From UHGV virus genome UHGV-0214148: a DNA stretch of 64,000 nucleotides; one strand, given 5' to 3'. A program made the translations under genes and the position numbers. Below, piece by piece: positions 22,887 through 59,790 of this stretch. The number at the start of each line of letters is the position of its first letter. Position 1 is the first letter of the stretch. The notes beneath the pieces are model-generated. The model did no database searches. It saw only the letters and a program-made list of their open reading frames with translations, and was not told the DNA's origin. The stretch comes from a virus.

Positions 22887-22911
22887 TCGACAGCGAAAAA
22901 AAAAAACAGTA

Positions 22912-23535: not shown

Positions 23536-23544
23536 CCCCCCCCC
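23536..23544. repeat. C9/G9 homopolymeric tract inside a GC hairpin
   Basis: Nine consecutive C on the plus strand in the intergenic region about 50 nt upstream of the 23484 start. Confidence 0.6.
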
Positions 23545-23551
23545 GAATCAA

Positions 23552-24082
23552 TTACTCTTTAGGCGCTGGTGCGGTGAAGCCATCCAGTTCACCTTCCAAA
23601 CCGTTCAGTGCTACTTTCTCAATAGCTGGAGGGGTAACTTTATACGTCGCAACAGTACCTGGCAGGAACTTCAAGTGGCCAGCCACAACCGTTACCACGT
23701 AAATGGTTTTGCCTTCTTCTTCACGAGAGATAGTTTGCAGGTCGTTTTCACCGAACTCGTCATCGGTGTACCCTTTCTCAGCCATGGCTGCGTTAACTTT
23801 CGCCAGGATTTTCGTCGGTGAATCGAAATCGGTAGTAGGTGCAGTTACTTCAACTTCACCAACGATGTCGCAGGAAAGACGAGTATAGTGGAATTCTTTC
23901 TCGCCTTTGAAGTTCTGGCTTTCTGCCTTGGCGGTCAGAGTAATTTTAGTGTTGCGGCCAGCTTCTCCGGTGAACTCAGCGACAGCACTAAAATTAACAT
24001 CATTTACAGTCAGCTTAGAAGCAGTTTGGTTGTTTTTAGCAATTACAATCTCGATAAGCTGCTGTTGAAAAGTTTTAGCCAT
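23552..24082 (-). CDS. hypothetical protein, paralogue family A (176 aa)
   Basis: Start moved to ATG 24082 (MAKTF...), which has a GAGGT SD and gives the same length as its paralogue; the track start is 24118. Confidence 0.55.
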   Translation of the reverse strand: MAKTFQQQLIEIVIAKNNQTASKLTVNDVNFSAVAEFTGEAGRNTKITLTAKAESQNFKGEKEFHYTRLSCDIVGEVEVTAPTTDFDSPTKILAKVNAAMAEKGYTDDEFGENDLQTISREEEGKTIYVVTVVAGHLKFLPGTVATYKVTPPAIEKVALNGLEGELDGFTAPAPKE

Positions 24083-24222
24083 TGTTTTTACCTCGTAAGT
24101 AGTATGGGTGGTTTGCATAGTATTGTTCGGATTATAGAAGTGTTGTTAATAGTTATGACAGACAGCAGTAAGGGTTGTCTGTAAAATTATTATTTTTTAA
24201 CTTTTTATAGAAGGGTGAAAAC

Positions 24223-33510: not shown

Positions 33511-33519
33511 GGGGGGGGG
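33511..33519. repeat. G9/C9 homopolymeric tract, intergenic
   Basis: Nine consecutive G on the plus strand between the stop at 33534 and the start at 33484. Confidence 0.6.
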
Positions 33520-37925: not shown

Positions 37926-38438
37926 CTACTCTCCAAAAGTTAAGATTTTATTGTCAAACGTCAACACGACAGAATCATCACCGATGCCACACGGTGTTTC
38001 ATCTGGGCCGAAAACCACCACGGAGAACTGTCCTTTATAAGCGATGGAATTTGGAGCGATGCTAAGCGTTACCGCGTCTTTACCTACCGTGAACGACTGG
38101 TCGGTTAAATCGTCGGTTTGTAAGTTAGCACCACAAACGGCATTGACGGATTCGATAAGATCGTGTGCATTAAACCCTTCACCTATTACTTTTACCAGAA
38201 TAGGTTGTTGGTTTAACCACCGCTCTGCGGTTAAACGGTTGTAGTAGATTTGCAACGTTCTGTTTCCAGGACGTTTAATCTTTACAATGGCAGTGGAGTC
38301 ACGATCCATTTCATCACTGGTTTTTACGTCACTGACTTCAACCTCGTTCTCTTGCAAGTCAAGTTGGAGGTCATGGTTAACCAGTGAAATAACCATGTTA
38401 AGTGAAGTTAGTGATAAATCTGGTGTGAATTTTTCCAC
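37926..38438 (-). CDS. hypothetical protein, paralogue family B (170 aa)
   Basis: GTG start with TAGGAGGT SD; shares PDLSL...NHD...YY.RL...CG.NLQ..DL and C-terminal CGIGDD.VLTF blocks with 44527..45087. Confidence 0.55.
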   Translation of the reverse strand: MEKFTPDLSLTSLNMVISLVNHDLQLDLQENEVEVSDVKTSDEMDRDSTAIVKIKRPGNRTLQIYYNRLTAERWLNQQPILVKVIGEGFNAHDLIESVNAVCGANLQTDDLTDQSFTVGKDAVTLSIAPNSIAYKGQFSVVVFGPDETPCGIGDDSVVLTFDNKILTFGE

Positions 38439-38492
38439 GTATGTTTACCTCCTAAGGTTGGGGGTCATAAAATATTGACTAAAAAACATTCA

Positions 38493-38501
38493 CCCCCCCC
38501 C
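38493..38501. repeat. C9/G9 homopolymeric tract, intergenic
   Basis: Nine consecutive C on the plus strand about 55 nt upstream of the family-B gene start at 38438. Confidence 0.6.
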
Positions 38502-38535
38502 ACGATTATTTTCAACCGCTTTCAGTTGAAAATAA

Positions 38536-38979
38536 TTAGCTAATTCTCAAATCACGCAGTGCGCCTGTCGATTTCATCGCGTTTTGGAACGCGCCACTGA
38601 TGTTATTAGTCCAGTAATAATGCTGTCCGTTAATAACCTGCTGATAGGTCAGTGCGCAGGTGTTACCACCTAAATTTACGGTAATGTTAGAGGCTCTGCC
38701 TCCTTGTAAGTAAACCGCTAAAGTAGGCTTTGCGTTGGCAACTATCGTCGTTAACTGTAACTCAATACCTACTAAAGTTCCCACCCCGCAGTTACCCGCG
38801 TTTTGAATGGTTCCCTGATTTTTCTGGTTTAACGGCCAGCTTGGTCCTACCGCGCCCCATTTCTTACCTAAAGAATCGCTATATGCAGCGGTTGCAATTT
38901 TACAGCCCATAGATCTTCCCACCATTTGACTCATCATAAAAGGTCTACCCAATCCTAATTTACTACCAGCAGCGCTCAT
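38536..38979 (-). CDS. adhesin-like Gly-rich protein, paralogue family C (147 aa as an intact ORF)
   Basis: Paralogue of 39298..39843; the conserved N-terminal extension and its SD/ATG lie upstream in another frame (see 38980..39044). Confidence 0.55.
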   Translation of the reverse strand: MSAAGSKLGLGRPFMMSQMVGRSMGCKIATAAYSDSLGKKWGAVGPSWPLNQKNQGTIQNAGNCGVGTLVGIELQLTTIVANAKPTLAVYLQGGRASNITVNLGGNTCALTYQQVINGQHYYWTNNISGAFQNAMKSTGALRDLRIS

Positions 38980-39044
38980 CCATTGTTCGCCCGTTTCGTT
39001 CTTAGCCGAAGAACCGACCCACGAACCGGTTACCCCCCCCCCAT
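38980..39044 (-). other. out-of-frame N-terminal extension of the family-C gene with its own SD and ATG, interrupted at a G-tract
   Basis: AGGAG 7 nt upstream of ATG 39044..39042. As sequenced the frame reads M-G-G-G-stop; one extra G, or two fewer, gives MGGGVTGSWVGSSAKNETGEQWMSAAG, which matches the paralogue's MGVASGWVGSSAKAVTGQEWMSVAG. Confidence 0.55.
39033..39042. repeat. C10/G10 homopolymeric tract at the start codon of the family-C gene
   Basis: Ten consecutive C on the plus strand; the last C is part of the minus-strand ATG. Confidence 0.7.
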
Positions 39045-39056
39045 CGCGATCTCCTG

Positions 39057-39287
39057 TTAAGATTTTCTACATGTTATTGAATCGAAAGCACCACGCCCAA
39101 CCCAACGCCAATTATAATGATGATCAGCTTTATAAAGTGTGTATCTGCCCTGCTTTTTTACGTCGAAAATATTGATCGTAGTCTCTTCATTACCCAGCTT
39201 AGCTGTGCCGTAACATACAGGTTCGGGTAGTTGTTGACATCCACTTACTGTAAGCAATGCGAAACCCAGTAAAACTTTTCTTAACAT
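39057..39287 (-). CDS. small lipoprotein (76 aa)
   Basis: Signal peptide with lipobox TVSGC; mature part about 58 aa; lies between the two family-C genes. Confidence 0.6.
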   Translation of the reverse strand: MLRKVLLGFALLTVSGCQQLPEPVCYGTAKLGNEETTINIFDVKKQGRYTLYKADHHYNWRWVGRGAFDSITCRKS

Positions 39288-39861: not shown

Positions 39862-39881
39862 TAGGGGGATTACTCCCCCTA
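39862..39881 (-). terminator. intrinsic terminator
   Basis: Stem TAGGGGGA/TCCCCCTA. Confidence 0.5.
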
Positions 39882-39884
39882 TCT

Positions 39885-42800
39885 TTAATTCCCCTTGAGT
39901 TCTTTAAGCTCTTGGCGAAGAGTTTTCATGCCTTCTACTAACAACGCAATAACACCATTGTAATTTAGACGTAAACGTTTTTCGCCTGAAATGGCATCAT
40001 CATCCTCAGACACAAGCTCAGGTAACGCTTCTAGAGCGTCCTGAGCAATTAGACCTACAGAAGTCTGCCAGCCGTCGTCAGGATGCTGAATTTCGTACAA
40101 ATAACCGGTTAGTAACTCTAACCGATCCAAAGCCTTATCCAGCTTCACCAGATTACGTTTGTTACGACGGTCAGAACGAATCTGTACGTCGTTAAACGAA
40201 CCGTTACCGTTGCCAGTAACGTTATGTCCAAAGTTTACTTGGCCGTTAGAATTATTAAAAGACAACGGGCGTAATCCGTTCCAGGAACCCGCTGCGGCTT
40301 GTCCGGCGTCGGTTACTAAGAAATAGGTATTGGCACCGTCGTTACGTAAAATAAAACCGTAGGTACCGTAAGCGATTCGAAAATCAGGGTATTTAGTGGC
40401 CAATTTACCATTAACGGTTAAATCACCGCCTACAGTACCGCCCCCTGACGGTAACGCGCCCACTTCCGCAGCAGTTGGCTTGTTTCTCGTATTGTAAGCA
40501 CGACGCCAGCCTGGTGAGTATCCATCGCCGTTAAATACGTAGATAAACTCCGCATTAGTGAGTGCTCCGCCGACGCTCGTCGTTGTGGCGGTCGTTATAC
40601 GGATCGTGTAGTTGTTTGTGCTGTTGCCGTTACTAATGACTTCTATAACGGCCCCAGCTAACGGAATGACACCACAACCCGTCTCGCTGTGAGGTATGGA
40701 CGCACTGGCGGCATAAGCCCACGCACAGCGAGCAACCCACGATCTTGTGGTAAATGCGCCGTTATTTTTCAATAACGTCACTAGCTGTGCTGTAGTTATT
40801 GCACCGCCATTAGCGCCAGTTTCTAACCAACCACTAGGTGATGCCGGACAACCTATTTCGGCTGGCCCTAACGATATATTTCTAGTGCCATCAAACGCAA
40901 TACCATTGATGGTTCTTGCGGTTTGCAACTTTGTTGCCGTGGCTGCGTTTCCGGTGGTCGACTGATTCCCTGTTTGGTTTACTCCAGGTAAGTTGATGTC
41001 TTTAGTACCATCAAAAGCTACGCCACCTATATTTCGCGCAGTCTGGAGCTTAGTCGCAGTCGCAGCATTCCCCGTCGTCGATTGGTTACCGGTTTGGTTC
41101 ACACCGGGCAGACTAATGTCTTGCGAACCATCAAAGTTAATACCACCGATCTTACGTGGCGTTTGTAACTTAGTAGCGGTCGCTGCATTACCTGTCGTAT
41201 TCTGGTTACCTTGCTGGTTAACCCCCGGTAAATTGATATCCCCAGTACCGTCAAAGGTAACGCCCCCGATTCTGCGAGCAGTTTTCAGTTTCGTCGCGGT
41301 AGCAGCGTTACCAGTAGTATCTTGATTACCGGTGGTATTTACACCAGGAATACTATCACGGGCAGTATAAACTTGTGCCCAATCTGACCACGGCGCATCC
41401 GCTGTATCGCGTCGACTACGAATATAAACGGGTGCGTGCGCACCACTCGTGCCCGACCAACCGATTAACAGTTCACCTTCACCTAGCGCAGTAGAACCGC
41501 CCAAATGCAGCAAGTTACCATAAGCGGTCGGATAACCGTTATTGTAAACTTCGTACATCTGAATACCGGGTGTACCTTTGTTTGAACCGGTTAGTGCAGT
41601 AACCCGACCACGACCTACCAGGGTGTTGATATTGATGTCAGCAGAACCATCGAATCTCACACCGTTAATATTTCTGGCAGTTTGAAGTTTAGTGGCTGTC
41701 CCGGCATTACCCGTGGTGTTTTGATTACCCTGTTGGTTAACACCTGGGAGGTTAATATCAGCACTACCGTCGAAAGCGACTCCACCAATTCTACGTGCCG
41801 TCTTTAATTTCGTTGCGGTTGAAGCATTGCCTGTTAACTCGCCTGCTAACCCTTTTGCAAAGGTCTGTTTTTCTGCCCAGGTGTGTGCTGCATTCAATAC
41901 AGGCATCTGTCGTGGTGTAATCGTACGACTACCTTTCTCACCAGCGATACGTACTGCAAAGAATCGATAGTTGGCAGTAGACACCGTACTACGCCAAACC
42001 AACATACTCCGGCCTGATGTAGCGCCATCTGATGGACCAACCAGAATGCTAACTAAGTTACCGTCAATAACACCCCAATCCATTCCCGTAGGAATGTTTT
42101 TCATGGTGTTAAGCGGCGTACAGATTAACTCACCCGGTTTAAAGTCATAGGTTTGCCAGTCTAAAGGATCAACATTCGCACGTTCACCGCCGATACCTAA
42201 TACCAGCGGAAGCGAATACGATGTGAAAACCTCACGCCAATCGCTCCAAGCGTTACCCGTACGGATACGTTGGAATTTACGACCTTTAGTTTCTGTACCC
42301 GTACCGTATGTAGTATAATTCTGTTCGACCCCTGTACCGTCTAAGCGTAAGGTAACTTCACAAACGCCTAATATGGTTTCACCAGAAGAACCGGTAAGTG
42401 GACCGTTAGTTGCTTCACCAGTGACACTGAAACGTCCCGGTTTAACGAGATCGTTAAAATTGGCTTTAAAGAAAGCACCGTCAGTCTGATAACCAACCTG
42501 AATCCAATCTTCCCATTGCGGGTTTGATGAATCCCACGTTGCGGTCAAACCACGAACATACATCGTACCACGACGTGTGGTGTATCGCTGCAACCGTCCG
42601 AAAAGACCACCTTCCATTACTTCTAGTACGCCTTGCGCACCGCCACCTTCTTCAGGGTAATGTCTGCTAAAAACAGCCAGCGAACTGCTTGAGTTTCGCC
42701 AGTTACCCATATGCTCAGCGCCACCCAAACTGTTCAAGTCTATAGCGGTAGATAATGGACGTACACCAGTAGTTACCATTCTCCACGGCGACCAGGGTCC

Positions 42801-44526: not shown

Positions 44527-45087
44527 TCATGTAGCCGGGTTTTCTTCAGCTGTGTCGTCATCTGGAACCTCAAAGGTAAGAACGGCATCATCACCAATAC
44601 AGAAGATCGCATCATCTTCGTTTGCTAATGCTCGTTCGGTTGTATCGAATAACGTTACCATAAACGCATTCATCCACGCAGGAGAATCGTCAGCAACGTT
44701 AACAGCAATGGGTTCGTTACCTAAGGTGATATCTGCAGCACGTAAATCTTCGGGTTGTAAGTTCGTTCCGCAGAATTCATTTACAACACCTAAAATGTCA
44801 CGAAGGTTGTCTTCAGTACCGTCTAACGAAATCAAAATAGGTTCAGACGCTAACACTTCGTCCGCATCCAAACGGTCGTAATAAACAACCACAGAAGCAC
44901 CATCAGGTTTCCTGATTTTTGTAATCTCTGTCAGTGTGTTACGACGCGAAGTGGTCGGGGACGGGTTTGCCATAGTGTTGCTAATACGGATTTCGTTTAG
45001 AGACAACCGTGAACCGTTATCGTGGTTGATTAAAGCGACCACTAATTCGGCTGAGGCCAGACTTAAATCAGGTACGTAAGTAGTCAC
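44527..45087 (-). CDS. hypothetical protein, paralogue family B (186 aa)
   Basis: Start reassigned to GTG 45087 (GGGAGG 5 nt upstream); the track ATG 45153 lies upstream of terminator 45121-45144, and homology to 37926..38438 begins right after the GTG. Confidence 0.55.
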   Translation of the reverse strand: MTTYVPDLSLASAELVVALINHDNGSRLSLNEIRISNTMANPSPTTSRRNTLTEITKIRKPDGASVVVYYDRLDADEVLASEPILISLDGTEDNLRDILGVVNEFCGTNLQPEDLRAADITLGNEPIAVNVADDSPAWMNAFMVTLFDTTERALANEDDAIFCIGDDAVLTFEVPDDDTAEENPAT

Positions 45088-45120
45088 TAAAACCTCCCAG
45101 ATCAAAAAAATAAAAACACC

Positions 45121-45144
45121 TACCGCCCATAGAATCGGGCGGTA
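45121..45144 (-). terminator. intrinsic terminator
   Basis: Stem TACCGCCC/GGGCGGTA followed on the minus transcript by a U-rich run. Confidence 0.55.
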
Positions 45145-45173
45145 GACAGTCATTTTACAGCTAAAAAATCAAA

Positions 45174-59745: not shown

Positions 59746-59790
59746 TTGTCACCTCCATACTGAAGTTGTGAAGTGAAAAAAAAAGAAAGC

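Follow-up and report, generated by a model that had tools for sequence, protein, structure and literature searches.

A start-codon poly-G tract as a probable on/off switch of a Gp38-type tail fibre adhesin in an enterobacterial jumbo phage

The 64,000-nt stretch of the virus genome UHGV-0214148 analysed here (hereafter the window) is part of an enterobacterial jumbo phage genome of ~225 kb, and carries on its minus strand a tail fibre adhesin gene, gp38B (39044-38536), whose start codon leads directly into a homopolymeric run of G. The run counts ten G (G10) in the window and breaks the reading frame at the very beginning of the gene, and otherwise identical genomes carry runs of different length, in frame (ON) as well as out of frame (OFF). 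There is very little doubt that the tract is hypermutable in nature, and the favoured reading is that of a slipped-strand contingency locus, in which the tract works as an on/off switch of adhesin production (probability roughly 0.7). That this switching is adaptive is proposed with less confidence.

In the mechanism proposed, polymerase slippage during replication of the phage DNA would add or drop G residues. Lengths of 5, 8 and 11 would give the full adhesin (MG(1-3)V...) with its N-terminal fibre-docking domain intact; lengths of 7, 9 and 10 would end translation after 3-13 codons and leave at most an undocked, N-terminally truncated fragment. A paralogous adhesin, gp38A, whose G5 start is stable and whose docking domain is the same, would remain as the constant adhesin. 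Since the docking domain is common to both, toggling of gp38B would alter the mix of adhesins at the fibre tips, and hence the receptors that can be used, in a heritable, reversible and stochastic manner.

Anatomy and family of the interrupted adhesin gene

Read directly on the minus strand, the stop codon of the preceding gene, cor (TAA, 39059-39057), is followed after 1 nt by the Shine-Dalgarno (SD) motif AGGAG (39055-39051) and, across a 6-nt spacer, by the ATG of gp38B (39044-39042), the same codon from which the 168-aa and 169-aa products of sister genomes are called. The G10 tract (39042-39033) includes the G of this ATG, leaving nine G past it, and is out of frame: frame 0 from the ATG translates as MGGG-stop, a mini-open reading frame (ORF) of four codons ended by a TAA at 39032-39030. 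The lengths that keep the gene in frame are 5, 8 and 11. The frame entered by the gain of one G or the loss of two reads GGGVTGSWVGSSAKNETGEQWMSAAG... and is free of stops down to 38536; a tract of G11 or G8 leads into this frame, in which the body of the ORF (39032-38536) is open, and the restored protein has 169 aa (G11) or 168 aa (G8), with the Gp38_N domain at residues 4-42. An earlier note on this DNA, made from the letters alone, had described the SD, the ATG with its nine further G, the immediate stop and the intact ORF opened by one extra G or two fewer, and all of these are borne out by direct reading and translation.

The downstream ORF has its first in-frame start at an internal ATG (38979-38977, minus strand), which corresponds to Met23 of restored gp38B. 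No AGGAG-like motif precedes it in the sequence as read directly, in agreement with the earlier note. Of the 19 invariant N-domain residues, ten precede Met23 and would be lost, so that a product from 38979 would miss much of the docking domain. OFF alleles appear in gene calls as a hypothetical protein of 124 aa or 147 aa. An in-frame form of the gene start with an interrupted tract (locked ON) would read ATGGGAGGCGGAGTA....

The family of the gene is well supported. Restored gp38B contains a complete Pfam Gp38_N domain (PF21721, E-value 6.8e-19, covering positions 2-40 of the 40-position profile) and also falls into PHROG 1121, 'tail fiber adhesin' (E-value 2e-44), which strengthens the previous suggestion of a gene involved in host recognition. 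A family profile built from nine sequences matches gp38 of Salmonella phage S16 in the PDB (6F45_D, E-value 1.2e-17), aligned from residue 1; the PDB search with the single gp38B sequence gave no match, and the nine-sequence profile was required. The C-terminal polyglycine-rich receptor-binding domain GP38 (PF05268) was found by Pfam search in neither gp38B nor gp38A, although the upstream adhesins of relatives (212-260 aa) do carry it. On sequence grounds, gp38B is classed as a short-form adhesin (167-169 aa, PHROG 1121) and not as a T2/S16-type gp38 in the full sense.

The paralogue gp38A (39843-39298, minus strand, 181 aa, assigned by Pfam and PHROG) likewise has Gp38_N; its protein begins MGVASGWVGSSAKAVTGQEWMSVAG and its gene starts with ATGGGGGTA, i.e. 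with an unexpanded G5. The earlier note had seen a match between this N-terminus and that of the restored frame while allowing that it might be spurious; by alignment, the likeness is real homology. In phage T2, gp38 binds the fibre protein gp37 through its N-terminus (PMC12892980). The long tail fibre of 1479 aa encoded upstream is the presumed docking partner of gp38A and gp38B here.

Tract length in related genomes

The ancestral, family-typical start is the G5 form (Met-Gly-Val) found in gp38A, which is also present in SSU5-like phage-plasmids, in the relatives L005 and L007 (related genomes and contigs bear L numbers) and in a relative from Escherichia coli 98232; the gene starts of L004 and L013 read ATGGCGG. 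Among genomes lacking cor at this position, expanded tracts occur as G8 in L006 and L086, in frame (MGGV...), and as G9 in the Salmonella Enteritidis assembly L087, out of frame. A strict rule by which a long tract would occur only together with the second adhesin was considered and dropped, as these three carry G8-9 with an upstream adhesin of a different type.

The lineage defined by the cor-gp38B junction comprises 18 genomes with identical flanks, the window included, and comparison of tract length among them, as the earlier note had advised, revealed a range of 7-11 G. G10 is present in eight of the 18 (including the window) and G9 in seven, while G7, G8 and G11 are found in one genome each; G7, G9 and G10 are OFF, and G8 and G11 are ON. 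The gene calls follow the tract: G8 gives a protein of 168 aa and G11 one of 169 aa, both with Gp38_N, while G7, G9 and G10 give only a downstream call of 124 aa without it. Counted by exact product, the OFF forms were found in 54+7+3 contigs (~64) and the ON forms in 18 (12 with G8 and 6 with G11).

The central evidence for rapid change comes from near-identical pairs, which were compared for single-nucleotide polymorphisms (SNPs) over 8.1 kb around the tract. L038 (G8, ON) and L066 (G10, OFF) have no SNP between them over this distance, nor does L041 (G10) differ from L065 and L073 (both G9), and L043 (G11, ON) is separated from L044 and L046 (both G9) by one SNP. Such pairs with 0-1 SNP, which represent assembly consensus from different samples, differ by 1-2 G at the gp38B tract and by up to 4 G at a second tract nearby. 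The presence of ON and OFF lengths in these pairs implies that the tract crosses the frame boundary within the time in which the 8 kb flank gains no substitution. Slippage would be a ready cause of such changes. In these identical backgrounds ON lengths lie to either side of the OFF mode, which, like a contig that breaks off at the tract, hints indirectly at mixed and reversible lengths within one phage population. The samples behind these eight genomes are listed at ENA as ERZ28648449, ERZ28647974, ERZ28649922, ERZ28646997, ERZ27264788, ERZ28646058, ERZ28644647 and ERZ28646393.

The tract is also exceptional by length. Base composition predicts 0.013-0.019 G/C runs of at least 10 for the window, and the G/C run lengths observed there are bimodal, with none of 7-8 and four of 9-10. 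A complete relative of 221,873 bp has only two G/C runs of at least 7 in its entire genome, and such long runs number two to four per genome. The gp38B tract is the sole homopolymer of at least 9 in the window that lies within coding sequence and the sole one that breaks a frame; the remaining runs of at least 9 are all intergenic, and an A8 inside an ORF of 1728 aa is in frame.

Wider scans added no further loci. An IMG/VR DNA scan with the exact flanks and a variable gap gave no match, the cor-linked lineage being absent from IMG/VR, and a scan of the same database with the no-cor flank returned no loci beyond those already known. A scan of JGI metagenomes with the 19-mer CAGGAGATCGCGATGGGGG gave 18 loci, all of them chance matches in unrelated contigs. 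One Logan contig terminates at ...GGAGATCGCGAT, the base preceding the tract. L088 was also inspected for a break at the tract; this contig begins within the gene.

Competing explanations

The serious rival to a contingency locus is neutral drift, whereby gp38B became dispensable once gp38A and cor had been inserted between it and the fibre gene, and the G run of a redundant gene on its way to becoming a pseudogene now simply wanders. We consider this unlikely, yet several observations weigh in its favour and against a switch. Both modal lengths (9 and 10) belong to the OFF state, which dominates (~64 versus 18 contigs); the ON share of 22-33% is near the one-third expected without selection on frame, and drift of a dispensable gene therefore fits it as well as bet-hedging. 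The tract is expanded in all 18 genomes of the cor lineage, while most genomes without gp38A and cor retain G5. Other long homopolymers vary too (a G tract of 9-13, a C tract of 8-10 and a T run of 9-10), including similar expansions at neutral-looking intergenic sites, from G5 to G9-13 and from C4 to C8-10; such variation indicates that mutability is general in this phage and is not evidence of design. Nevertheless, expansion has also occurred where the upstream adhesin is of a different type (L006, L086 and L087), and ON alleles turn up repeatedly, in at least two identical backgrounds. Furthermore, the 165-codon ORF behind the tract is intact in 18/18 genomes, the SD and ATG are unchanged across them, and the 12 polymorphisms within the ORF comprise nine synonymous and three non-synonymous changes, an excess of synonymous change with p roughly 5e-4 (a hand binomial assuming ~74% non-synonymous sites and a neutral expectation of 3:1). 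The intact ORF and the synonymous bias argue for continued selection on the gp38B protein, as far as can be judged from the sequences. Against this, the genomes are young relative to one another, which makes an intact ORF without secondary lesions weak evidence, and recombination with ON lineages could have brought in the synonymous-biased polymorphisms; the C-terminal part of gp38B in the window resembles the G5-lineage allele P0031.

The earlier note had left three possibilities side by side, namely a slipped-strand switch, a programmed frameshift and a homopolymer sequencing error. The 7-11 G within identical flanks and the occurrence of ON and OFF in backgrounds 0-1 SNP apart uphold the first, while the other two fare poorly. 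An error in sequencing or assembly would mean that the true tract is in frame, for example G11, and that the G10 of the window is an artefact. The lengths are short-read assembly consensus, which is error-prone at long poly-G and unreliable at runs of at least 10 G, so that differences of +/-1 may be partly technical; an error could account for +/-1 in any one assembly, that of the window included, and it is in keeping with the break of one contig at the tract and with a T9/T10 run that likewise differs between near-identical contigs. However, identical backgrounds show 7-11 G at this tract and 9-13 G at its neighbour in data of at least three assembly origins (ENA VATA22-2 scaffolds, a pair of megahit-style k141 assemblies and Logan) plus isolate whole-genome sequencing, and a consensus error does not typically amount to 2-4 nt. 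Elsewhere in the 64 kb, homopolymers interrupt no ORF, and even an in-frame G11 would remain a hypermutable tract. Error as the full explanation is thus very unlikely.

We give as little credence to recoding, by which OFF alleles would be expressed through ribosomal or RNA-polymerase slippage and the tract would act as a dimmer instead of an off switch. Expression would require a -1 shift at GGG-UAA for G10 and G7 and a +1 shift for G9. The codons of a G run are all decoded by one tRNA-Gly, which permits perfect re-pairing in both directions, and homopolymers of at least 9 are sites of transcriptional slippage; a stop placed right after GGG, as in G10, could reportedly favour a shift in the P site, according to work on 'slippery runs, shifty stops'. 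Yet the out-of-frame state is not conserved, as G5, G8 and G11 alleles encode the same protein directly, and both out-of-frame classes exist, requiring opposite shifts. Nor is there a stable downstream structure: the 76-nt fold of 39075-39000 scores z = +0.33 against shuffles, and the only hairpin, a weak one 13 nt downstream of the tract, lies in conserved coding sequence. These features leave an evolved programmed frameshift disfavoured. Low-level slippage on OFF alleles is possible; it would make the switch leaky and is compatible with a slipped-strand contingency locus.

Genomic setting and relation to known systems

gp38B lies in a region of the minus strand comprising two fibre modules, each headed by a DUF7941 paralogue (44527-45153 and 37926-38438). 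In gene order, the first module opens with a DUF7941 protein (45153-44527), followed by the long tail fibre (44324-39885, 1479 aa, Pfam and PHROG), which ends in a C-terminal Peptidase_S74 chaperone domain. The second module begins beyond gp38B with a DUF7941 virion protein of 170 aa (38438-37926) and continues with a second fibre or spike of 706 aa (37922-35802) bearing a SASA carbohydrate-esterase domain and DUF6645, both genes being assigned by Pfam and PHROG. The two fibres have an N-terminal motif in common (..KKIRLHDL../..KKRIHELD..). In several relatives (L004, L006, L086 and L087), a protein of 206 aa replaces the 706-aa esterase fibre. The long fibre of L038 and L066 differs from that of the others by a 120-nt in-frame indel (window ~41900-42020) that drops one 40-aa repeat (1439 versus 1479 aa), and in L046 the loss of one base, outside any homopolymer, divides the fibre gene into parts of 902 + 557 aa. 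A G5/C5 stem-loop, GGGGGAGTAATCCCCC (39863-39879, -19 kcal/mol, z -2.9), follows the stop of the fibre gene and precedes the start of gp38A; G5...C5 hairpins occupy the equivalent position in the phage-plasmid p09EL50 and in L013.

The arrangement between fibre and gp38B is variable. In the window, gp38A and cor intervene between the two, with cor placed between the two adhesin genes; in relatives, gp38A and cor are missing or replaced. The gp38B ortholog follows the long fibre gene directly in L004, and a GP38-type adhesin stands between the fibre and the gp38B ortholog in L005, L006, L007, L077, L086 and L087. The cor gene (39287-39057) encodes a Cor-like superinfection-exclusion lipoprotein of 76 aa (phrog_1119, E-value 1.3e-25) with a signal peptide ending ..VSGC. 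The Cor protein of siphophages blocks FhuA, and by analogy the position of cor beside gp38A hints at FhuA as the receptor of gp38A. No invertase or reverse transcriptase was seen adjoining the gp38B locus, and a family-B polymerase of the phage's own is annotated in a relative.

The remaining genes of the window encode large virion proteins and radical-SAM proteins typical of a jumbo myovirus. The records nearest to it are circular 'plasmids', one from E. coli 98232 (221,873 bp) and the other from Enterobacter ludwigii (222,441 bp), together with 225-kb IMG/VR genomes and more than 100 metagenome contigs of ~225 kb. The 222-kb RefSeq 'plasmid' relatives (L077-L082, NZ_CP173450.1; L001, NZ_CP134650.1) derive from a urine isolate of E. 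coli and a gull isolate of E. ludwigii, and nearly all of their proteins are annotated as hypothetical. Proteins and contigs of the family also occur in isolate assemblies of Shigella flexneri and Salmonella enterica. The 'plasmid' and isolate-assembly records suggest a carrier state, pseudolysogeny or culture contamination. No cultured representative of this phage was found in the phage collection searched.

A second hypervariable G tract lies ~540 bp downstream of the first, in the intergenic region 35 nt past the gp38B stop (38501-38493, minus strand); it counts G9 in the window and 9-13 G in sister genomes, and is kept as G9-10 in distant relatives including that of E. coli 98232. The tract supplies the 5' arm of a conserved hairpin (G-run/AAATGTT...AACATTT/CTCCCC, ~38445-38505) just ahead of the SD of the DUF7941 gene. 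In L088 the tract is only G5 and the inner stem is differently sequenced yet complementary, which is the sole observation supporting the hairpin, the covariation test having returned only invariant G-C pairs. This tract may tune the downstream DUF7941/esterase-fibre module. The idea that it serves as the spacer of a sigma-70 promoter (TTGAAA, 17-18 nt, TGAAAT) was discarded, as the promoter scan did not list such a site; promoter-like sites are no commoner than in shuffles (17 versus 22).

Other runs in the window are of more than one kind. A C tract at 33511-33519 (G9 on the plus strand, C9 on the coding minus strand) is intergenic between genes of 280 aa and 171 aa; it measures C8-10 in some sister genomes, others read AATCACACCACC and are tract-free, and L013 has C4. 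Both the second tract (G5 in L088) and the C tract (C4 in L013) look like expansions of short seeds, as with the adhesin tract. The run at 23536-23544 (C9 on the plus strand, G9 on the minus strand) is part of a G9-loop-C5 hairpin 8 nt past the stop of a 188-aa gene (23552-24118, minus strand); the relative from E. coli 98232 retains it as C9, one of just two G/C runs of at least 7 in those 222 kb. The hairpin is possibly a terminator or RNA element. The runs A10 (918-927), A11 (22896-22906) and A9 (59776-59784) are intergenic and each adjoins a GC-rich hairpin, which on the minus strand gives a hairpin plus T-run like that of ordinary intrinsic terminators; runs of A9-A10 number 11 in the relative from E. 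coli 98232, mostly in similar contexts. The T9/T10 run, at ~3795 in L065-L074 (upstream of the first DUF7941 gene, which starts at 45153 in the window), differs between contigs identical over the 8.1 kb compared; its counterpart in the window is T7. As a rough control, this run indicates that long non-G runs vary by +/-1.

The switch proposed for gp38B has well-known bacterial counterparts. In contingency genes of Neisseria, Haemophilus and Campylobacter, poly-G/C near the 5' end toggles the translation of surface proteins, and tract lengths differ between clonal isolates. gp38B, by comparison, resides in a virus with its own family-B polymerase, and the outcome would be virion tropism instead of antigenic variation. 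Phase-variable receptor-binding proteins of phages have, to our knowledge, been demonstrated experimentally in Campylobacter phages only. The nearest parallel is therein: receptor-binding protein genes of Fletchervirus carry tracts of 7-11 G (Sorensen et al. 2021, as described in 10.1101/2025.10.21.683753 and PMC10579305). By these descriptions, the length range is the same, the tract likewise sits in a receptor-binding protein gene of a virulent myovirus, and frame-dependent protein production yields mixed progeny. gp38B resembles these loci in having a tract of at least ~7 G in a receptor-binding gene, a length that changes faster than substitutions accrue, and a toggle between full-length and truncated product. 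The two nevertheless differ, again as far as Fletchervirus is described in those sources, in that its hosts are Campylobacter and its tract lies inside the gene, whereas here the hosts are Enterobacteriaceae, the phage is a jumbo phage of ~225 kb, the adhesin belongs to the Gp38_N family and the tract abuts the start codon. Moreover, the gene under control here comes second in a tandem pair of adhesins that share one docking domain, and the evidence is wholly that of comparative metagenomics.

Among coliphages, polymerase slippage causes reversible +/-1 frameshifts at contingency loci of T2 and T4, far more often than point mutations arise, and this has been put forward as bet-hedging (Gomez, Barrick & Waters, 10.1101/2025.10.21.683753). 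Most of those loci consist of 6-9 A residues and lie in genes such as agt and rIIA, and repeats are under-represented (0.77x) in coliphage tail-fibre genes (10.1101/2025.10.21.683753), whereas the present locus is a G10 in an adhesin gene, with much larger natural length excursions. The gp38 proteins of T2, T6 and S16 (6F45; PF21721, PF05268) have the homologous N-terminal domain and a position downstream of the long tail fibre gene (for gp38B of the window, with gp38A and cor in between), and are likewise separately encoded tip adhesins that set receptor specificity; however, the adhesin of S16 and T2 is single, constitutively in frame and equipped with the polyglycine-rich domain that the short-form gp38B lacks. 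Invertible segments (Gin of Mu, Cin of P1) and the diversity-generating retroelements of Bordetella phage are other tail-fibre switching systems (PMC10579305); their purpose, a heritable stochastic alternation of receptor specificity, is alike, while their mechanisms, site-specific inversion and reverse-transcriptase mutagenesis, are wholly different. Thus, if gp38B is a switch, it has its mechanism in common with known systems and differs from them in phage group, host group and protein family. What sets this locus apart is the tract at the start codon, its place in the second of two tandem adhesins and the natural ON and OFF alleles in identical backgrounds.

A broader picture may tentatively be drawn, although we hold it to be somewhat less likely than its negation: a two-adhesin form of bet-hedging in a widespread, uncultured gut jumbo phage of E. 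coli, Shigella and Salmonella, with a constitutive gp38A (maybe directed at FhuA) paired with Cor, gp38B switched and the second tract maybe tuning the esterase-fibre module. If so, public metagenomes would already record phase variation of phage receptor binding in human guts. Contingency loci have been proposed in coliphages only recently, and the present locus extends the idea to a common enterobacterial jumbo phage and to Gp38-type adhesins. With more than 80 assemblies carrying ON and OFF alleles in identical backgrounds, the rate and direction of switching, and selection upon it, are addressable from existing reads. The annotation of OFF alleles as hypothetical proteins masks a putative host-range determinant, and a phage used in therapy or diagnostics would lack a fixed host range if it carried such a tract.

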